DNA of 64,000 nucleotides. Origin: Candidatus Latescibacterota bacterium. Lineage in GTDB: Bacteria > Latescibacterota > UBA2968 > UBA8231. The translations under genes and the position numbers were made by a program. The stretch spans positions 3,968,001-4,032,000 of the forward strand of contig OZ242318.1 in NCBI GenBank assembly GCA_965208105.1, written 5' to 3'. A model generated the notes under the pieces. That model was not told where the DNA came from. It made no database searches and saw only the letters and a program-made list of their open reading frames with translations. Positions 553 through 62,936 of this stretch are shown in pieces. Position 1 is the first letter of the stretch, and every line of letters begins with the position of its first letter.

Positions 553-1659
553 ATGAAAAAAGCAATTCTGTCAATCGTCCTTTTCTGGGGTTTTTCCTTG
601 TGCGGCGCGGAGACATCGGGAGATGCAGAGAACGGTGCGGACCTGATTCTGCGCGCAAAGGTGAAAAAGAAGTTCAAGTTCCGCGGGAATTTCGGTGTCA
701 AGTTCGGCGTTGAGAAAGTGGAAAAGGGGGCCCTACAGGAGGGAGCAATCCAGATTTACTTCGATCCATGGGAAGAAAGGAGAATAGATCTGGAAGAGTT
801 GAAGGGCGGTGACATGTTTACGCTTGAATGCGTCGAATCGGATGAAGTATCCGACACCGACTTCATCGAGATACTGGCAGCCGGCGCCGAGGCCAGGAAA
901 ACGAATTGGAAGGTAATCCGGATCGCAGCATTCATTGCCGATGAGGACAGGGTATATGATTCCTTGCAGGAAGCCCTGGCGAACCGTGAAAGGGTTTATA
1001 TCCTCCACCTGAACAGAGAGGGATTGGACAGATGGCCCGCCAGAGTTGGCAAACTCACCCGTCTGAAAAAGCTCTCTTTAGCCAAGAATAAAATTGCGAG
1101 ATTGCCCCAAAGAATCGGCGAGCTCAGCCACCTGGAACACCTCGATGTCAGCAAGAATGCCCTAGGGGAGGTTCCTCGAGAGCTGTGGAATCTTGCCAAT
1201 CTGGAGTTCCTGTCTCTTGCGGGCAATGAAATTTCGGGACTTCCCCAGGGGATGGCCAAATTGAAGAGGCTGAGAGTACTGCACCTGAACAAAAACTCGT
1301 TCGCGGTGTTGCCGCCTGAAATAGCAGAGCTTGATTCCCTGCGGGAATTGGATTTGCACGGCAACAAGCTCAGCAGCCTCCCGCCCGGGATAAAAAATCT
1401 GAAGAAACTGAGGAAATTGAGCTTGGGGAACCCATTCTACGGTGGTAACGAGTTCAAGACCCTGCCCCTGGAGATAACCGAAATTGAAAGCCTGGAAGAA
1501 CTGGTCCTGAGTAGAAACAGCATCGCCGCACTTCCGCCCGAGATGAAAAAATTGAGAAACCTCAAGAAGCTGTGGGTAAACCAGGACTTTGACACGAAGG
1601 AAGTTCGCAAGGTCAAATCCCTCATACCGAATTTACACGTCTTGCAATTTTCAAAATGA
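553..1659 (+). CDS. Secreted leucine-rich repeat protein
   Basis: N-terminal signal peptide MKKAILSIVLFWGFSLCGA. About 8-9 LRRs of 23-aa period (LxxLxLxxNxlxxLPxxI) in the C-terminal half. Confidence 0.9.
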   Translation: MKKAILSIVLFWGFSLCGAETSGDAENGADLILRAKVKKKFKFRGNFGVKFGVEKVEKGALQEGAIQIYFDPWEERRIDLEELKGGDMFTLECVESDEVSDTDFIEILAAGAEARKTNWKVIRIAAFIADEDRVYDSLQEALANRERVYILHLNREGLDRWPARVGKLTRLKKLSLAKNKIARLPQRIGELSHLEHLDVSKNALGEVPRELWNLANLEFLSLAGNEISGLPQGMAKLKRLRVLHLNKNSFAVLPPEIAELDSLRELDLHGNKLSSLPPGIKNLKKLRKLSLGNPFYGGNEFKTLPLEITEIESLEELVLSRNSIAALPPEMKKLRNLKKLWVNQDFDTKEVRKVKSLIPNLHVLQFSK

Positions 1660-4825: not shown

Positions 4826-4957
4826 GGGCCGCCGAGGCGCCCGGCTCACAAGGCGCCTGAGCGAGTCGTACCAGTGGTGTACGGCGAGTGAAGGCAACGC
4901 CGTGAGCCGGGATGGATCGGCGGAATAATGGCGACATATTTCTGCGACGGGACACTA
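4826..4957 (+). mobile_element. MITE copy 1 (left end missing about 32 bp)
   Basis: Near-identical to 10735-10866. Ends TCTGCGACGGGACAC-TA; the CTA at 4955-4957 is the cupin stop codon. Confidence 0.85.
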
Positions 4958-10700: not shown

Positions 10701-10866
10701 TAGTGTCCCGTCGCAGAGATAGGTTGACGAAATTGGGCCGCCGAGGCGCCAGGCTCACAAGGCGCCTGAGCGAGTCGTACCAATGGTGTACGGCGAGTGA
10801 AGGCAACGCCGTGAGCCGGGATGGATCGGCGGAATAATGGCGACATATTTCTGCGACGGGATACTA
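10701..10866 (+). mobile_element. MITE copy 2 (full, 162 bp plus flanking TA)
   Basis: TIRs GTGTCCCGTCGCAGAGAT / ATTTCTGCGACGGGATAC with TA on both sides. Reconstructed empty site is C-TA-G. Confidence 0.92.
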
Positions 10867-12385: not shown

Positions 12386-12551
12386 TAGTGTCCCGTCGCG
12401 GAGCTAGGTTGACCAAATTGGGCCGCTGAGGCGCCCGGCTCGCAAGGCGCCTGAGCGAGTCGTCCCGGTGGTGTACGGCGAGTGAAGGCAACGCCCTGAG
12501 CCGGGATGGATCTGCGGAAAGATGGCGACAAATTTCTGCGACGGGACCCTA
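12386..12551 (+). mobile_element. MITE copy 3 (full, most diverged)
   Basis: TA-GTGTCCCGTCGCGGAG...TCTGCGACGGGACCC-TA. The CTA at 12549-12551 is the stop of the adjacent oxidoreductase. Confidence 0.9.
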
Positions 12552-29702: not shown

Positions 29703-30725
29703 ATGCTCCGCTCTCTCATGGTTCTGGCCATTTCAGCCGCAATGACAGGTCTCCTCGGAGCCCTGGACATCGAGGAGCAGTTGAGCCTGGAAAGAGAGCA
29801 GGACCTGGTCATCGAAGGCCGTGTCGACTGGGGAGAAAACCTGCTCATCGCCTACGGAGAAAGTGCTGCGACCGAGGCGTTGACCGATCCGGTACAGCGG
29901 CGCTTGATGGGGTTTCGCGCCGCCAAAGCGGCGGCTTACCGCAATCTGCTGGTGCTTGCCGGGGAGGTGCAGATTGACGCAGGGACCAAGGCAGGGGCGG
30001 CGATGGCGGGCAACGACACCCTGCGCTCGCGCATTGCCGCAATTGTCCGGGCTGCCCGTGTGAAACCCGGAAGCAATCGCGAAGTCGACGGAGCCTATCG
30101 CCTTGCCCTGCAACTCAATCTTCTCGACGATTTTGCCGATGCCGTGCTGTCCGTCCTGACATCCGACCCGCATGGATGGGCATTCGCATCAGGCTTGGCT
30201 GACACCCTGGCACCGTATATTCCGGCAGCGCCCTATAGCGGCCTGCTGGTCGATGCGCGCGGCCTCGCCGTGAGGCCCTGCATGGCACCGCGCATCCTTG
30301 GGAAGAACGGCGGTGTCCTCTACAGCGCCGGATCGGTCGAACGCCACCAGGCTACTCGCATGGGCGTGGTAGGATACTACGATGACATGGAGGAGGCTGC
30401 TTCCAGTGACCGCCTGGGAGGGGAGGAAGCAGATCCCCTGATTGTCAAAGCCGAGGAAGTAGCGGGATTATTCAACGGCGATGTGGTACTGGGCGACGAA
30501 GATGCCCTTCGCCTATACCTGGCCAGCGAAGAATCCAACTTGCTGGGCGGATGCCGGGTCGCTCTCGTTATTGGTCCGGAGCCGGTATCGATTGATTCAA
30601 CTTTGGCCGATTCCACCTTGCTGGACTCCACTCTTCTCGACTCCACCCTGCAGATTTTCCCTCACTTGGAGGAGAACATCCATGACCTTCCAGGAGAAGC
30701 TGGCGCAGGCAGTTGCCCGGAATAA
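29703..30725 (+). CDS. Exported protein (LPP20-like N-terminal region)
   Basis: Signal peptide; GRVDW, RAAK.AAYRNL, YSGLLVDARGL..RP.MAPRI; C-terminal DSTLx repeats. Confidence 0.7.
   Translation: MLRSLMVLAISAAMTGLLGALDIEEQLSLEREQDLVIEGRVDWGENLLIAYGESAATEALTDPVQRRLMGFRAAKAAAYRNLLVLAGEVQIDAGTKAGAAMAGNDTLRSRIAAIVRAARVKPGSNREVDGAYRLALQLNLLDDFADAVLSVLTSDPHGWAFASGLADTLAPYIPAAPYSGLLVDARGLAVRPCMAPRILGKNGGVLYSAGSVERHQATRMGVVGYYDDMEEAASSDRLGGEEADPLIVKAEEVAGLFNGDVVLGDEDALRLYLASEESNLLGGCRVALVIGPEPVSIDSTLADSTLLDSTLLDSTLQIFPHLEENIHDLPGEAGAGSCPE
30594..30653 (+). repeat. Four degenerate 15-bp tandem repeats encoding DSTLA-DSTLL-DSTLL-DSTLQ
   Basis: gattcaactttggcc gattccaccttgctg gactccactcttctc gactccaccctgcag. 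Confidence 0.85.
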
Positions 30726-31536
30726 CTCGCTGCTCTGCATCGGGCTGGACCCGGACCCGCGACAACTGCCGCAAAGGGCGCAAACCGAGGAGAATCCCGT
30801 CCTCTACTTCAATCGCCGGATTATAGAGGCCACCTCCGACCTGGTTTGCGCATACAAACCCAATTTCGCCTTCTATGGTGCTCTCGGGTCAGAGGGCTGG
30901 CCCACCCTGCGAGCGACCCTGTCCCATGTGCCTCCTTCCATTCCCATCGTCATCGACGCCAAGGTGGGAGATATCGGCTATACTGCGGAAAAGTACGCCA
31001 CCATGTTCTTCCATGAGCTCGGCGCCGATGCCGTGACGGCAAACCCCTACATGGGCGGGGACGCGGTAGCTCCCCTGCTGCAGTATGCGGACAAAGGCGT
31101 CTTTCTCCTCTGCCTGACTTCCAACGATGGAGCCCGGGACTTCGAAACGCTGTCGCTGGGGGACCGTCCACTCTACGAACATGTCGCCCTCAAGGCGGGA
31201 TCGTGGAATCGGAACGGCAACTGCGGATTGGTGGTTGGCGCCACCCGGTCAGATGCCATGGAGAAAATTCGCTCCCTGGCTCCAGATCTGCCTTTTCTCG
31301 TTCCTGGAGTTGGAGCTCAGGGCGGCGACCTGACGACTGCCGTGTCCTGCGGCCAGGATGGAGCCGGAGGTGGAGTGCTGATCAACGCTTCACGTTCCGT
31401 TCTCTACGCCGGGAATGGTGACGACTTCGCCATGCTTGCGCGCCAGGCGGCCTGCAAGTTGCGCGACGAGATAAACCGCTGTCGCACCCGAGTTGGGGAG
31501 GGGCTTGCGACCACGAGGATTGGTGTGTCAGGATGA
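30682..31536 (+). CDS. pyrF: Orotidine-5'-phosphate decarboxylase
   Basis: LCIGLDP, YKPNFAFY, DAKVGDIG.T (DxKxxD), LVVGAT, PGVGAQGG, NASRS. Confidence 0.96.
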   Translation: MTFQEKLAQAVARNNSLLCIGLDPDPRQLPQRAQTEENPVLYFNRRIIEATSDLVCAYKPNFAFYGALGSEGWPTLRATLSHVPPSIPIVIDAKVGDIGYTAEKYATMFFHELGADAVTANPYMGGDAVAPLLQYADKGVFLLCLTSNDGARDFETLSLGDRPLYEHVALKAGSWNRNGNCGLVVGATRSDAMEKIRSLAPDLPFLVPGVGAQGGDLTTAVSCGQDGAGGGVLINASRSVLYAGNGDDFAMLARQAACKLRDEINRCRTRVGEGLATTRIGVSG

Positions 31537-31560
31537 GCCCATCCCCGGTCGAGGAGCCGG

Positions 31561-31609
31561 AGGCCGGTTTCCATCTGTTCCGGGTGCGTCGTGGAGCGGC
31601 CTCGGTCTA
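31561..31609 (-). other. Distal part of an orphan IS1111-type non-coding (bridge RNA-like) scaffold
   Basis: Reverse complement TAGACCGAGGCCGCTCCACGACGCACCCGGAACAG aligns to the IS non-coding region from 32989 (TAGATTGAGGCCGCTCCGCGACGCACCCAGGACAG). Confidence 0.8.
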
Positions 31610-31723
31610 GACCTTATGTATTGACGGAGATATGAAAGACCTCCTCCGACTCGGTTGTCGGGGGTTATCTTTGGGAAAACGGAGTTCACCCAAAGACCTA
31701 TCCCCAGCGAGAAGGAGGAGGCC

Positions 31724-32863
31724 ATGCGTAAATCTACGAAATTCGTCGCCTTGGACATACATAAAGATTCGATCACCGTCGCCCTGGCCGGTGAAGGCCG
31801 AAAAGGGCCAGACCTGTATGGAACGATACCGTCTACGGGCGCCGCGTTGTCCAAGCTGGCGGGCCAACTGGCCCGTGGTGGGACCTCGTTGCGGTTTTGC
31901 TACGAGGCCGGACCCTGCGGCTACGGCGTCTACCGTCAGCTCACAGCCCTGGGGCACGCCTGCACGGTGGTGGCGCCCTCGCTGATCCCGCGTCGGCCGG
32001 GCGACCGCATCAAGACCGACCGCCGCGATGCTGTGTCTCTGGTGCGGCTTTTCCAACACGGCGAGTTGACCCCCGTGTGGGTGCCCGACGAAGCGCAGGA
32101 GGCGATGCGCGATCTGGAGCGCTGCCGGGAAGACTTCAAGCACGCCGAGCGCCGCGTGCGCCAGCGGCTGAACAGCTTCTTGCAGCGCCACGGCCGGATC
32201 TACTCCGGGCGCAGTCGCTGGACCCAAGCCCACTTTCGCTGGCTGCAGACCCAGCGCTTCGATCATCCGGCCCAGCAGATCGTCTTTCAGGAATACGTGG
32301 ACGCGGTACAGGAAGCCCAAGGTCGGATCCAGGGGTTGGACCAGGCCCTGCAGCAGGCGCTGGAGGGATGGTCTTTGGAAGGGGAGACGCGGGCTATGAG
32401 GGCGCTGCGCGGGGTAGACACGCTCACCGCGGTTACGACCCTGGCCGAGTTGGGGGACCTCACCCGCTTTGACTCGCCGCGCCAACTGATGGCCTTCGTC
32501 GGTCTGGTCCCCAGCGAGCATTCCAGCGGCTCCCGCCAAAAGCGAGGGGCGATCACCAAGGCGGGCAACGCCCACGTGCGGCGCGTGCTGGTGGAAGCCG
32601 CCTGGTGCTATCGCTTTCCCGCCCGCAAGACGGCCGCCTTGCAACGACGCGCCGAACAGACCGCACCCCCCATACAGGCCATCGCCTGGAAGGCACAGAA
32701 ACGCCTGTGTGGGCGCTATCGACGGCTGAGTGGGCGAGGGATGCCGAAAAACAAAGTCTGCACCGCGATCGCGCGGGAGCTTTTGGGTTTCATCTGGGCC
32801 ATCGCCTGGGAGCAGAAACGCCCCGGCCGCCTCGTGGCCAGGAGGCCTCGGATCGCCGCCTGA
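31724..32863 (+). CDS. IS110 family DEDD transposase/recombinase
   Basis: ALDIHK, CYEAG, KTDRRDA (DEDD) and GLVPSEHSSG (catalytic Ser); SD AAGGAGGAGG. Confidence 0.97.
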   Translation: MRKSTKFVALDIHKDSITVALAGEGRKGPDLYGTIPSTGAALSKLAGQLARGGTSLRFCYEAGPCGYGVYRQLTALGHACTVVAPSLIPRRPGDRIKTDRRDAVSLVRLFQHGELTPVWVPDEAQEAMRDLERCREDFKHAERRVRQRLNSFLQRHGRIYSGRSRWTQAHFRWLQTQRFDHPAQQIVFQEYVDAVQEAQGRIQGLDQALQQALEGWSLEGETRAMRALRGVDTLTAVTTLAELGDLTRFDSPRQLMAFVGLVPSEHSSGSRQKRGAITKAGNAHVRRVLVEAAWCYRFPARKTAALQRRAEQTAPPIQAIAWKAQKRLCGRYRRLSGRGMPKNKVCTAIARELLGFIWAIAWEQKRPGRLVARRPRIAA

Positions 32864-32916
32864 TAAGCTCATCGTCTCAGAAGCCGGCATAGGACCTTTG
32901 CTCATGTAAATCGAAA

Positions 32917-33086
32917 CGGGACAGAAGGGACCGGTCAGGAGAATCCTCGAAGACACTATGAGGCGCCTATCAGGCTGACCCTCGACTCTAGATTGAGGCC
33001 GCTCCGCGACGCACCCAGGACAGGCGGTAACCAACCCGCGAATATCAGTCGGATCAACCGTCGCTACAGCGTCCCTTCTGTTCCCG
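32917..33086 (+). ncRNA. Predicted bridge RNA/seekRNA of the IS1111 element
   Basis: Closing helix CGGGACAGAAGGGA/TCCCTTCTGTTCCCG. Loop 1 closed by CCTCGA/TTGAGG holds GACACT and TCTAG; loop 2 closed by GCGACG/CGTCGC holds ATATCAG. Ends are approximate. Confidence 0.75.
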
Positions 33087-33134
33087 AACAAACTCATGCA
33101 AAGATAACACCCGAAATGACCACCCCGGAGGGGG

Positions 33135-33140
33135 TTGACA
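33135..33140 (+). promoter_or_regulatory. Outward-facing -35 box at the IS right end (circle-junction promoter)
   Basis: TTGACA just inside the right IR. In the circle a weak -10 (GACCTT) falls at 17-nt spacing. Confidence 0.55.
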
Positions 33141-33157
33141 ACCGTCAATACATATCA

Positions 33158-33321
33158 GTGTCCCGTCGCAGAAATATGTCGCCATTTTTCCGCCGATCCA
33201 TCCCGGCTCACGGCGTTGCCTTCACTCGCCGTACACCACTGGTACGACTCGCTCAGGCGCCTTGTGAGCCGGGCGCCTCGGCGGCCCAATTGGGTCAACC
33301 TATCTCTGCGACGGGACACTA
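33158..33321 (-). mobile_element. MITE copy 4 (full, inverted); outer CTAG split by the IS1111
   Basis: GTGTCCCGTCGCAGAAAT...ATCTCTGCGACGGGACAC-TA. Removing the IS restores CTAGTGTCCCG. Confidence 0.92.
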
Positions 33322-33432
33322 ACTTCGAAGGTCAGCCTGAAGGGCGCCTCATAGTGCAGTCGAGGATTCTCCTGACCGGTCCCTTCTGTTCTCCTTCGAT
33401 CTACATGTTCAAGGTCCTATGCCTGGTTCTGA
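33320..33432 (-). other. Proximal part of the orphan bridge RNA-like scaffold
   Basis: Reverse complement shares ACAGAAGGGACCGGTCAGGAGAATCCTCGA, ATGAGGCGCC and TCAGGCTGACC with 32877-32990. Confidence 0.85.
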
Positions 33433-33567
33433 TCGGCTTGATGGGCCGCGCCGAGGCCCGGGAAATCGTGGGTCGCAACGCAACCGCCGGCAAGTTGGTG
33501 GTCGAGGTTCCATAAACGACCGGGTCTCACTGGTGATCTTTACACACTCCAACAAAGCAGGCAAACC

Positions 33568-34407
33568 ATGACTGAAGAAGAGTTGTACCTGTTCGATACG
33601 CTCGGTTTTCTCCGGGTGGAAAACGTGCTCGACGAGGAGACCGTTGCCCAAGCCCAAAGGGGGGCGCAGAAGATCGTTGACGACTGCGGGCACCTCCTGG
33701 AACAACCGCCGGGATCCGGCTACGGGGACAAGTACAAAAACGCGATTGTCCACGACAAGGTGTTGGAGCGGATCGCCTATTCGCCGGTCATGCTGGATTA
33801 CGCCTGCCACCTGACCAACAATATGCCGCGCCTCCTGGACGGCACCATGATGGTCCAGAATTCCGACCACGGGTTCCACAACTTCCATCTGCGCAAGGAT
33901 ATCCTCAGTGAAATGCACGAGGACGCCCCGCGCTTTTATACCGACGTGGTTCACCGCCGGATTTATTGTGACTGGGCCACCTTCTTCGTCTACCTGACCG
34001 ACGTGCGCCCGGGGGACGGGGGCCTGCTGGTGGTGCCCGGAGCCCACAGGGCCAGCTTCATCTATCCCCCCGAGCTGTTCTATGCGAAAGACGCCTATCC
34101 GGTGGACCCGGAAGAGCGTCAAAAACTGGGATTCATCAACGTCACCGCCAACGCGGGGGACATGATCATCATGCCGCTGCGCCTGAACCACGCGGCCCTG
34201 CCCTGGCTTCCGGTGGACCGGGACCGGATCTTGATGTTCTACACCTACCGGCCCCAGTTCTACTGCTCCGAGCCTACCGACCAATGGTTGGCCGCCGCCG
34301 CCGCCGCCGGCATCCAGCTGGATGCCGAGACCATCGAGCTGGCCTCGATGAAGGAGAAGGGAGAGCTGAAGGATATCGTCAAGAGCCACCTCGGCATCGA
34401 CGCATGA
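33568..34407 (+). CDS. PhyH family dioxygenase-like protein
   Basis: YLFDTLGFLRVENVL, YLTDV.PGDGGL.VVPGAH, AGDMIIM...HA, R.LMFY.Y. Confidence 0.85.
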   Translation: MTEEELYLFDTLGFLRVENVLDEETVAQAQRGAQKIVDDCGHLLEQPPGSGYGDKYKNAIVHDKVLERIAYSPVMLDYACHLTNNMPRLLDGTMMVQNSDHGFHNFHLRKDILSEMHEDAPRFYTDVVHRRIYCDWATFFVYLTDVRPGDGGLLVVPGAHRASFIYPPELFYAKDAYPVDPEERQKLGFINVTANAGDMIIMPLRLNHAALPWLPVDRDRILMFYTYRPQFYCSEPTDQWLAAAAAAGIQLDAETIELASMKEKGELKDIVKSHLGIDA

Positions 34408-34610
34408 GCCGGACGAAGGGCCCTTGGATCTTTCCGCGCGCCTGTGACAGCCATCCCGGCAACCCCTGCTCCTCCCGCTTCCGTCCGGCGGTCAACCGCA
34501 GGTGGGCGGCCATCAAGAAACAGATGTCCGCTATCGACGCCGCCTTCCTGCTCCACGGCGGCGGCCTGACCCGCGACGGCGAGACGCGCAAATGCGAATT
34601 CCGGTGGCTT
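34404..34610 (+). pseudogene. Truncated metallophosphoesterase-like fragment
   Basis: ATGA-coupled to the PhyH stop. CDSH (DxH) and LLHGGGLTRDG (degenerate GGDL), then similarity is lost; end approximate. Confidence 0.5.
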
Positions 34611-34702
34611 CGACGCACCTGTTCCGCTGAGCTGATCGTCAGACCGTGCCGTCTTCCAGATCGACCCGGGGACTCCCCCCAGCAACCACCTGCGGCGCCG
34701 GA

Positions 34703-36679
34703 ATGAAGCTGGAACCGAACCGGGATGAGACCCCTCGCATCACCCTGCGGGGGTTGGTTCTGGGCCTCCTGACCATTGCCGCCACCTTCTACTTTTACAT
34801 CGGCGAGATTCAGGGAACGGGGATGCTGGGCCATGCAGTGAGCTCCCAGCTTCCGGTGGTGGTGTACGTTCCCTTCGTCCTGTGGCTCTTCCTGAACGTA
34901 GTGGCGAAACATCTGTGTCCCCGGCTGGCGCTGCGCCGGGGGGAATTGCTGACCATCTTCGGGATGCTCTGGGTGGTGGGCACGATTCCGGGCTACGGCT
35001 GGATGGGGTACTGGGTGCTCACGCTGGCGGCGCCGGCGTTCTACGATTCCGCCGAAAATCAGTGGACTGAGATCCTTTTCGACTTCCTGCCCTGGCACGT
35101 CTTTCCCGACCCCTCGGCGCGGGTCATCGACACCTTCTGGCTCGGCCTGCCGGAAGGTGCGCCGGTGCCCTGGGACGGTTGGATCGGGGCGACGGGGCAG
35201 TGGTTGAGTGTTTCGGTGGCCATGGTTGGGTTCGGCCTCTGCATGGTTGTTCTGCTGCAAAGGCAATGGGAAGCCGGGGAGAAGTTGACCTTTCCCCTGG
35301 CGCAGCTCCCGTTGGACCTGACCGCCGGATTCGACGGCCCCCGCCGGATGCCGGCGATCTTCCACTCGCGTCTGTTCTGGATCGGATTCGCCGCTGTTTT
35401 CCTCCCCGTCCTGTACAACATCGCCACTTACTTCATGGCCGGCCTGCCGCGGATCGGCATCTACTGGGATCTCTACAACATCCGCCTGGGAGAGGGATTC
35501 CCGACTCTGCACTTTCGCATCATGCCGCTGGTGGTAGCGGTAACCTACCTCTGTCCCCTCGATATTCTGGCCAGCATGTTCCTCTTTCACCTCCTGGCGA
35601 TTCTCAAGGGGGCGGCCATGACGCGCATCGGCTTTACCGTCGGCACCTCCGGGGAGCCGCTGCATTGGAACGAGATCCTGCACCTGGAAAGTTATGGCGC
35701 CCTCATCTTCATTGGGCTCTGGACCATCTGGCTGGCCCGAGGGCATTTGCGCGCCGTCTGGCGGCAAGTGCGATCGGGCGCCGGCAGAGGTGCAGAGGTC
35801 TCCCGCTACCGCTGGGCGCTGTCCGGTTTGGCGATCAGCGGCGGCTATGTGCTGATCTGGATGGTGGCGATCGGCATTAGCCTGAAGGCGGCCCTGCTGA
35901 TTTTTTCCATAGCGGTCCTCACCTACCTGGTGGTAGTCAAACTGATCGCCGCAACCGGCTGCGCCTATCTGCTCACCGACCCCGGGCATATCAAGGGAAT
36001 CACCTTCGTAGACCAGCTGTTGGGCACCGCCCTCCTGTCCCCTCGCAGCTATGTCGGCTTCCGCCTGTTCAGCAGCACCACCTTTTTCGGCAACCTGCGC
36101 ATTCCTGCCTGGCCTTCCCTCCCCCACCTGCTGCGCATATTCTCCATGAAGCGACAACCGGGATGGATCACGGCACTGGTATTGGCCGCTTTCCCGGTGG
36201 GCTTTCTGGTGGCCGCATGGGCGACCCTGGAGATCGCCTACACCGAGCAGGCCCTGGTCTTCTTTTCCGACAGCGTCGCACCGGGATACAGCGAGACCGC
36301 GCGCAACCTGAACAACCCGAAAACATCCGATCTCGGACGGTGGCTCGTATTCCTCGCCGGCGTCGCGGAGTCGGCGGTGCTGGCCCTGTTGCGGGCGCGC
36401 TTCCACTGGTTTCCGTTGCACCCGCTCGGGGTCGCATTTCAGTACACCATCGTCGGCATCGTATTCTGGTTCAGCCTGTTTCTGGTTTGGGCGGTGAAGG
36501 TGTCGCTGTTGCGCTACGGAGGCAAAGCGGCCTACCTCGCCGGCAAGCCGTTCTTTTACGGCCTGGCGGTGGGGTACGTGAGCGGGATCATCCTCTCGGT
36601 CGGGGTCGACTTCATCTGGTTCCCCGCCGCCGGCCACAACGTCCATTCCTGGTTCGTCGAGATCAAGCCGTTGATCTAG
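34703..36679 (+). CDS. DUF6785/DUF6784-type polytopic membrane protein (putative transporter)
   Basis: ITLRGLVLG, L.RGELL, RQW...EKLTFPLAQLP, RF.WFPLHPLG, K..LLRYGG...Y...KPFF.GL. Confidence 0.8.
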   Translation: MKLEPNRDETPRITLRGLVLGLLTIAATFYFYIGEIQGTGMLGHAVSSQLPVVVYVPFVLWLFLNVVAKHLCPRLALRRGELLTIFGMLWVVGTIPGYGWMGYWVLTLAAPAFYDSAENQWTEILFDFLPWHVFPDPSARVIDTFWLGLPEGAPVPWDGWIGATGQWLSVSVAMVGFGLCMVVLLQRQWEAGEKLTFPLAQLPLDLTAGFDGPRRMPAIFHSRLFWIGFAAVFLPVLYNIATYFMAGLPRIGIYWDLYNIRLGEGFPTLHFRIMPLVVAVTYLCPLDILASMFLFHLLAILKGAAMTRIGFTVGTSGEPLHWNEILHLESYGALIFIGLWTIWLARGHLRAVWRQVRSGAGRGAEVSRYRWALSGLAISGGYVLIWMVAIGISLKAALLIFSIAVLTYLVVVKLIAATGCAYLLTDPGHIKGITFVDQLLGTALLSPRSYVGFRLFSSTTFFGNLRIPAWPSLPHLLRIFSMKRQPGWITALVLAAFPVGFLVAAWATLEIAYTEQALVFFSDSVAPGYSETARNLNNPKTSDLGRWLVFLAGVAESAVLALLRARFHWFPLHPLGVAFQYTIVGIVFWFSLFLVWAVKVSLLRYGGKAAYLAGKPFFYGLAVGYVSGIILSVGVDFIWFPAAGHNVHSWFVEIKPLI

Positions 36680-43991: not shown

Positions 43992-44051
43992 CCGTCGATC
44001 CATCCCTGCTCACGGCCCAATTGCGTCAAACTGTCTCTGCGACGGGACACT
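43992..44051 (-). mobile_element. MITE copy 5 (relic with internal deletion)
   Basis: CGATCCATCCCTGCTCACGGC is fused through CGGC directly to CCAATT...TCTCTGCGACGGGACACT. Confidence 0.75.
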
Positions 44052-62770: not shown

Positions 62771-62936
62771 TAGTGTCCCGTCGCAGAGATAGGTTGACGA
62801 AATTAGGCCGCCGAGGCGGCAGGCTCACAAGGCGCCTGAGCGAGTCGTACCAGTAGTGTACGGCGAGTGAAGGCAACGCCGTGAGCCGGAATGGATCGGC
62901 GGAATAATGGTGACATATTTCTGCGGCGGGACACTA
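62771..62936 (+). mobile_element. MITE copy 6 (full)
   Basis: TA-GTGTCCCGTCGCAGAGAT...TCTGCGGCGGGACAC-TA. The CTA at 62934-62936 is the M16 peptidase stop. Confidence 0.92.

Follow-up and report, generated by a model that had tools for sequence, protein, structure and literature searches.

A 64,000-nt stretch of a Candidatus Latescibacterota bacterium genome (contig OZ242318.1, positions 3,968,001 to 4,032,000; hereafter the window, in whose coordinates features are given unless stated otherwise) contains an orphan guide-RNA gene, split in its guide region by a miniature inverted-repeat transposable element (MITE) and by a complete insertion sequence (IS) of the IS1111 group, IS110 family. 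We consider the orphan, with a probability of roughly 0.85, to be a dead internal fragment of a second IS1111-group IS that was related to the resident IS and not identical with it. Judged from the sequence, the surviving parts would be, after perhaps a final ~20 nt of transposase gene, the leader, the target-binding arm and half of the donor-binding arm. The guide letters of the orphan point to a parent IS that would have inserted at AAGTT-AG-TGCAG-like sites and not at the CTAG-TGTCC site of the resident IS, and the relic appears to be without present function.

The evidence begins with the continuity of the two flanks. When the minus-strand segments 33432-33320 and 31607-31566 are rejoined over a single TA, BLAST aligns the product in ungapped register over 156 nt (82.7% identity) to the 3′ non-coding region of eight resident IS copies, and over 147-148 nt (83.8-84.5%) to five more; aligned separately, the flanks match the adjacent IS positions 1266-1374 and 1376-1421. 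The left part (33320-33432, minus strand) comprises the leader, the outer and second stems, the 5′ guide, the inner hairpin and the 3′ guide as far as the TA, is 85% identical to IS positions 1266-1374, and scores 40.1 bits (E value 7.8e-6) against the covariance model of the RNA family. The right part (31566-31607, minus strand; 82.6% identical to IS positions 1376-1421) supplies the target-binding arm's 3′ strands (GACCGAGG..GCTCC) together with the donor-binding arm's 5′ half, up to its hairpin loop (..GGAAACC). Placed in the family alignment, the orphan runs from the leader through the entire target-binding arm into the donor-binding arm, of which it retains the 5′ half; its target-binding arm is complete after rejoining, with all stems kept, and is split in the present genome by 1,712 bp. 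Homology stops in the hairpin loop of the donor arm, at about 31566-31571, and the donor 3′ half and the right end are absent, leaving an incomplete donor arm. Nor is the orphan encoded in an element next to a recombinase gene, as a bridge RNA would be.

The divergence of the orphan is concentrated in its guides, which read CTGCACT (5′ guide, 33353-33359, minus strand) and AAGTTA with a G added across the TA (3′ guide, 33320-33325, minus strand). The 68-nt target-binding arms of orphan and intact IS differ at 11 positions, six of them among the 14 guide positions (hypergeometric P = 0.007). The original prediction, made from the letters of the stretch, had described the continuous homolog across the TA, the guide motifs of both partners, the clustering of substitutions in guide segments between conserved stems, and the truncation of the donor loop; each of these is borne out by the alignments, with the motifs at the expected positions. 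It had further reported that no transposase was recognisable upstream, and this stands in part. DNA and protein searches found none: transposase similarity was absent from 33320-33620 and 31500-31611 (best tblastn E value 0.34, over 13 aa), and an unanchored Smith-Waterman comparison for an eroded transposase upstream returned nothing (67 of 200 shuffles reached the score). However, a weak colinear vestige of ~20 nt may adjoin the orphan. In an alignment anchored at the orphan, the last 45 nt upstream score 15.0 against 5.1 +/- 1.8 for shuffles, none of 500 of which reached that score; for the part from -70 to -26 taken alone the alignment is not significant (120 of 500). The result is suggestive of homology running ~45 nt further up, into the last transposase codons, and a possible spacer with the last ~20 nt of the gene (GGGCCTCGG..CGC.GCC) may be placed, no more firmly, at 33433-33459 (minus strand). 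An eroded transposase directly upstream had been named in the original prediction as the mark of plain IS debris, and by that criterion the possible vestige points to debris.

The resident IS (31611-33156, plus strand; core AG at 31609-31610 and 33157-33158) encodes a 379-aa transposase, or recombinase, at 31724-32863 (plus strand), which matches Pfam PF01548 (DEDD_Tnp_IS110; E value 6.4e-13) and PF02371 (Transposase_20; 1.9e-22) and scores 263 bits against NCBIfam NF033542, the IS110 family RNA-guided transposase, for which the cutoff is 140. It thus combines a DEDD (RuvC-like) with a Transposase_20 domain, as expected of the IS110 family and its IS1111 group. The element also has a long non-coding region downstream of its gene, 293 nt from the transposase stop (32863) to the IS end (33156), together with 12-nt sub-terminal inverted repeats (ATGTATTGACGG at 31616-31627 and CCGTCAATACAT at 33142-33153), and so has the layout described for the IS1111 group (PMC11208160; PMC11187229). 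BLAST finds 12 copies in the host genome, a single 4.85-Mb contig, at 95.6-100% identity, one of them with an internal deletion, and in addition one 166-nt right-end fragment. The lineage was found with the covariance model in 11 of 132 genomes of its class, and the closest annotated plasmid-borne recombinases are only ~60% identical to the resident one.

The intact bridge or seek RNA of the resident IS lies at 32918-33080 (plus strand), where the two-stem-loop form with a target loop that marks such RNAs is present and the guides match the flanks. Ten distinct members of the RNA family were aligned, namely the window IS, eight sequences from the genomes of seven relatives, and one metagenomic contig; they share a consensus fold of 40 pairs, with two internal-loop stem-loop arms and a long-range closing stem. 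Conservation within the family leaves little stem covariation (compensatory changes in 2 of the 40 pairs), and the structural call therefore rests mainly on folding energy and guide logic. An Rfam scan of 30000-35000 at E values up to 1 gave no match, and no curated family covers the RNA. Variation in the alignment is greatest in two 7-nt segments that lie in the first arm's internal loop, AGACACT (32951-32957, plus strand) and ACTCTAG (32985-32991, plus strand) in the resident IS. Comparison of these segments with the flanks of the 12 copies shows the first to read, in reverse complement, as the core followed by the right flank (AGACACT against AGTGTCT) and the second to read as the left flank followed by the core. 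Three of the copies carry variant 3′ guides (ACCATAG twice, ACCCTAG once), and the same rule holds in a metagenomic relative (L013) and in the related genomes G042 and G016. In the second arm, the donor guide ATATCAG (33042-33048, plus strand), on the 3′ side, reproduces the final 5 nt of the right end and the core in all ten members; for the 5′ donor segment, inspection shows only ~4 of 7 positions that would pair with the left end. In IS1111-type seekRNAs the top-strand match lies 5′ of the bottom-strand match (PMC11187229), and the order is the same here. The leader of the resident RNA also contains a left-end-like stretch (AGGACCTT..ATGTA, 32891-32914, plus strand), which may be a relic of an internal end comparable to the A′ box of ISPpu9, and which could explain the origin of RNA-only modules.

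At all 12 of its copies, the resident IS is bordered by CT-AG to the left and by AG-TG to the right, with a single core dinucleotide recurring at either end. In 10 of the 12, the right flank consists of the MITE end TGTCCCG. The other two copies (host contig positions 2089785-2091334 and 3964966-3966515) have right flanks of TGttgtgtcc and TGgtcgctg, one of them carries the variant 3′ guide ACCCTAG, and they look like off-target or alternative-target insertions.

Read by the same rule, the orphan guides CTGCACT and AAGTTAG predict the target AAGTT-AG-TGCAG. The reading is well founded in view of L013, a 1.7-kb metagenomic contig with a full IS, 77% identical, whose 5′ guide is the orphan's CTGCACT and whose right flank is AG-TGCAG; its 3′ guide, ATGCTAG, stands beside the left flank cTGCTAG. 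The target of about TT-AG-TGCAG put forward in the original prediction thus obeys the guide-to-flank rule of the 12 resident copies, of L013 and of the other relatives. The search for uninterrupted alleles, standalone copies and the parent that had been suggested alongside it was answered in part, by L013: no element with both orphan guides was met in exact-word scans of genome, metagenome and viral contigs, scans which diverged parents would escape. A 19-nt word around the 5′ guide had no match in genome or viral contigs and two in metagenome contigs, L013 and L014; the latter was rejected as a chance match in unrelated sequence, as was L015, the only genome-contig match to the 19-nt 3′-guide word. 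Within the host genome, the predicted target occurs at no site of 12 or 11 nt, shorter sites fall below expectation (one of 10 nt against 7 expected, four of 9 nt against 23), and none of the 12 resident IS copies sits at an AAGTT-AG-TGCAG-like site.

The MITE that separates the two orphan parts is 162 bp long (33158-33319), with 14-nt terminal inverted repeats (GTGTCCCGTCGCAG) and a TA duplication at 33320-33321 and 31608-31609, the second TA lying beyond the IS. The genome holds 81 complete copies by inverted-repeat pairing, with TA on both sides in 42 of them; reconstruction of the target gives CTAG in 34 copies and TTAG in 5, together 39 of 81. The MITE may be of the IS630/Tc1-mariner type. 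IS630 prefers CTAG targets. The search for an autonomous partner, through inverted-repeat pairs 600-3000 bp apart in the genome, returned one pair, at 2,837 bp, and otherwise nothing. Further copies or fragments lie in the window at 4826-4955, 10703-10864, 12388-12549 and 62773-62934, with partial ones near 36035 and at 44013-44051. Since the 3′ guide of the IS family necessarily contains CTAG or TTAG, the site that the MITE prefers, there is a mechanistic reason for a MITE to be found in a guide. The coincidence itself was rejected as more than chance: about 0.35 such events are expected on a rough count (~4,800 CTAG/TTAG/CTAA sites, ~120 pairs of MITE ends, ~14 guide sites), and the one seen is unremarkable.

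The order relic, then MITE, then IS, which had been foreseen in the original prediction, fits both the duplications and the relative divergence of the layers. The TA pair is the duplication of the MITE and the AG pair (31609-31610 and 33157-33158) the core of the IS; copies of the IS are mostly 99.5-100% identical, MITEs ~88-99%, and the relic is 83-88% identical to any IS. In the proposed sequence of events, the relic would initially have read ..AAGTTAGACC.., its transposase and right end already lost. The MITE, duplicating TA and preferring CTAG or TTAG, would then have landed in the TTAG of the relic's 3′ guide. The new CTAG-TGTCC junction (plus strand) so created would lastly have received the resident IS, guided by its own RNA.

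The fate of the same locus in relatives is the most telling evidence for debris, as it appears from sequence comparison to have been destroyed independently and differently in two of them. In a sister species (G001), where matches in the flanks stand at 98% and 87%, homology to the window ends at 33421 and restarts at 31572, and the gap between is filled by ~1 kb of unrelated fragments that include an IS right-end piece and a MITE. In run X19, which represents another strain, a 3,129-nt contig joins 31555 to 33382 through 14 letters identical to 33368-33381; its flanks are 93-97% identical to the window, the relic leader is kept, and with 33367 joined to 31555 both guides and everything downstream are deleted. 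This deletion is bounded by an 8-bp direct repeat (GTCGAGGA, plus strand) at 31548-31555, with its partner at 33359-33366.

Transposase-less fragments of the IS family appear, from the sequences compared, to be common in the clade. Apart from 12 full matches (191-199 bits), a covariance-model search of the whole host genome returned only the orphan, which is single-copy, and one further fragment, at 77.5 bits. Across 19 examined model-match loci, from which 10 further full copies in the host genome were excluded as redundant, the transposase is absent at nine, and at a tenth, the orphan locus, the only transposase is that of the nested IS. The other host fragment lies at 3931301-3931510 of the host contig (G000 C1), ~37 kb upstream of the window start; its target arm is degenerate and its donor arm intact. 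It retains the right end, is 91.6% identical to the resident IS over 166 nt, begins right after the stop codon of a gene, and is followed ~60 nt downstream by a partial MITE. Two loci of a related genome (G042) share breakpoints with the orphan: a 5′-truncated IS (L028, 1500-1670) starts exactly after the CTAG of its 3′ guide, the point at which the orphan is split, and a second locus, a fragment (L031, 1501-1560), ends in ..GGTAACC at the hairpin-loop position of the donor arm where the orphan also ends. These coincidences hint at hot spots in the guide-RNA gene. A transposase-less locus of another genome (L052 in G056, ~1520-1640, minus strand) retains the leader and a complete target arm with guides CGAAAACT and ACGCTTGG, breaks off ~10 nt into the donor arm, and resembles the orphan in overall shape.

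Several observations weigh against reading the orphan as mere debris, and some of them bear on the boldest claim of the original prediction, namely that transposase-less guide cassettes might retarget IS110 recombinases in trans. On that account, the fragment as it stood before the MITE would have been a working, free-standing, seekRNA-like target-loop cassette whose RNA was taken up by a resident recombinase of the IS110 family and steered insertions to AAGTT-AG-TGCAG. Decay by point mutation is slight: the orphan departs from the family at just 2 of 54 invariant columns (intact members at 0-7), and both changes fall in the donor-arm remnant, leaving the target-binding arm intact at every invariant position. 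The vestige of a transposase tail is no more than suggestive. G001 seems to share the relic's left edge, and perhaps its right one, which suggests that the truncated edges survived a speciation. Loss of half the donor arm need not prevent function, since a short 82-nt seekRNA of ISEc11 alone supported movement in trans, and was tolerated across diverged transposases (PMC11187229), and since separate RNAs for the loop that binds the target (TBL) and the loop that binds the donor (DBL) worked for IS621 in vitro (PMC11208158). A promoter scan of 31400-33700 on both strands found no site at all, which counts against a cassette, but the scan is crude and insensitive in G+C-rich DNA and found no promoter for the neighbouring gene either. 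Against the cassette stand, moreover, the interrupted and single-copy state of the orphan, the absence of target sites of 11 or 12 nt and the shortage of shorter ones, the lack of any resident IS copy at such a site, and the destruction of the arm in three ways in three lineages, so that there is no sign of selection to keep it. We regard a working cassette as improbable on this balance, and the original claim of retargeting in trans is not upheld. The wider proposition, that relics reduced to a target loop act as free-standing guide genes and that a pre-MITE cassette gave the resident IS a second specificity, is to our minds a decidedly long shot. If it were true, 3′ guides that copy the CTAG or TTAG junction would make guide genes landing pads for the very MITE on which the IS preys, and prey (MITE) and predator (IS) would disrupt each other.

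A second alternative starts from a ~260-bp transposase-less unit in G056, as the orphan could be the remnant of a non-autonomous mini-element of this kind, made of a left end, a guide-RNA gene and a right end. The G056 unit is present in three copies, 94-96% identical to the reference copy (L029, L032 and L034, at ~1274-1653 of each), in which the IS left end (AG followed by ACCTTATGTATTGAG) leads directly into the RNA leader and target arm and then into a right-end-like terminus. Each of the three lies inside a high-copy repeat, a copy of which interrupts the 3′ guide in all of them; the 5′ guide does not match the flanks, and the genome holds only transposase fragments. Given this state of its guides, the unit looks like a deletion derivative mobilised through its ends and not like a guide donor. 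Its existence lends the mini-element account some substance, as does the left-end-like stretch of the leader, which lies exactly where clear orphan homology starts. However, the homology of the orphan extends at least 12-22 nt upstream of the left-end-like AG and so takes in sequence which full IS copies carry in the interval from the transposase stop to the leader, and the orphan therefore cannot be a G056-type unit cut at that site. Its left flank, GGCAT-AG, also mismatches its own 3′ guide, and it has no right end, which together make a mini-element origin very unlikely. An error of assembly, in which repeats were wrongly joined, might be suspected on the ground that all three layers are repeats or repeat-like, and the nest is verified in part, with no single contig or long read among those aligned spanning all of it. 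Logan contigs of X15, a run that probably represents the source sample and so offers no independent check, pass over the orphan/MITE junction by 57 nt; at the other junction they enter the IS for 23 nt, where bridging would take 31 nt; in runs X1 and X3, at ~3x coverage, the flanks are recovered with no differences and the contigs end at 31597 and at 33395 or 33421. But the genome is one contig, the TA and AG duplications are precisely what genuine nested insertions would leave, and the depth of the IS is ~12x that of its flanks, in line with 12 copies, so that an artefact is scarcely credible. A dead fragment of a second IS1111-group element is accordingly the account that we prefer.

Each layer of the locus has counterparts in described systems. 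The resident IS resembles the IS1111-group elements ISEc11, ISKpn4 and ISPa11 (PMC11187229; PMC11208160) in its recombinase domains, RNA-encoding right end, sub-terminal inverted repeats, order of strand matches in the RNA, and insertion, AG-flanked on either side, beside a repeat end; the RNA scaffold of this group is found in the orphan too, which differs in being without a recombinase and element ends, with half a donor arm, and interrupted. The pair formed by orphan and intact RNA had been called a natural reprogramming pair, and it is a real one, but not new, as the natural re-direction seen between ISEc11 and ISXne4 (PMC11187229) likewise combines conserved stems with replaced target-matching segments, each fitting a different flank. 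Both partners are complete elements in that case, whereas here one is a fragment whose target is inferred from its relative L013. IS621 (PMC11208160; PMC11208158) likewise has two internal loops, whose target and donor guides are modular and surround a shared core dinucleotide, and its RNA works in trans and with split loops in vitro; its RNA lies upstream, in the left end, with a core of CT, whereas that of the resident IS lies downstream, with a core of AG. Transposase-less small-RNA modules of the IS110 family that stand alone in the chromosome, as the orphan would have done, are represented by MITEPpu9/ssr9 of ISPpu9 in Pseudomonas putida (PMC12288879). There, ssr9 is a multi-copy module with functional end-like boxes that forms minicircles and is dispensable for transposition; unlike it, the orphan lacks ends, exists in one copy and itself includes the target-guide loop. 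Target choice guided by RNA in the IS1111 and IS110 groups (PMC11187229; PMC11208160), re-direction by guide replacement and RNA action in trans (PMC11187229), and stand-alone RNA modules (PMC12288879) have thus all been published, and a description of orphan bridge or seek RNA genes acting in trans was not met in the titles or abstracts of the literature searched.

The locus is flanked by a gene of the OMP-decarboxylase family (30481-31536, plus strand; Pfam PF00215, E value 7.8e-31) and by a gene for a PhyH-family dioxygenase (33568-34407, plus strand; PF05721, 6.2e-13), which is divergent from the orphan; a large gene with DUF6785 and DUF6784 follows downstream of the latter at 34646-36679 (plus strand). 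About half or more of the words sampled from a 2.45-kb stretch, a fraction close to the portion of that stretch occupied by the IS, recur in metagenome runs of sponge, coral-reef and marine origin that belong to several studies, and the resident IS, or its host, may be widespread in such habitats.

An orphan guide gene acting in trans would, if true, matter for target diversification, and nothing at this locus speaks for it. The relic is an instructive fossil, and nothing about it suggests a new mechanism. As such, the locus is a compact natural record of site choice by RNA-guided insertion sequences, in which three layers each lie exactly where the specificity of the next element predicts, and two related guide RNAs differ mainly in their guide letters. 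For annotation, it yields a clean rule linking guides to flanks in an IS1111-group lineage that is poorly described and targets the junction of a TA and a MITE end.

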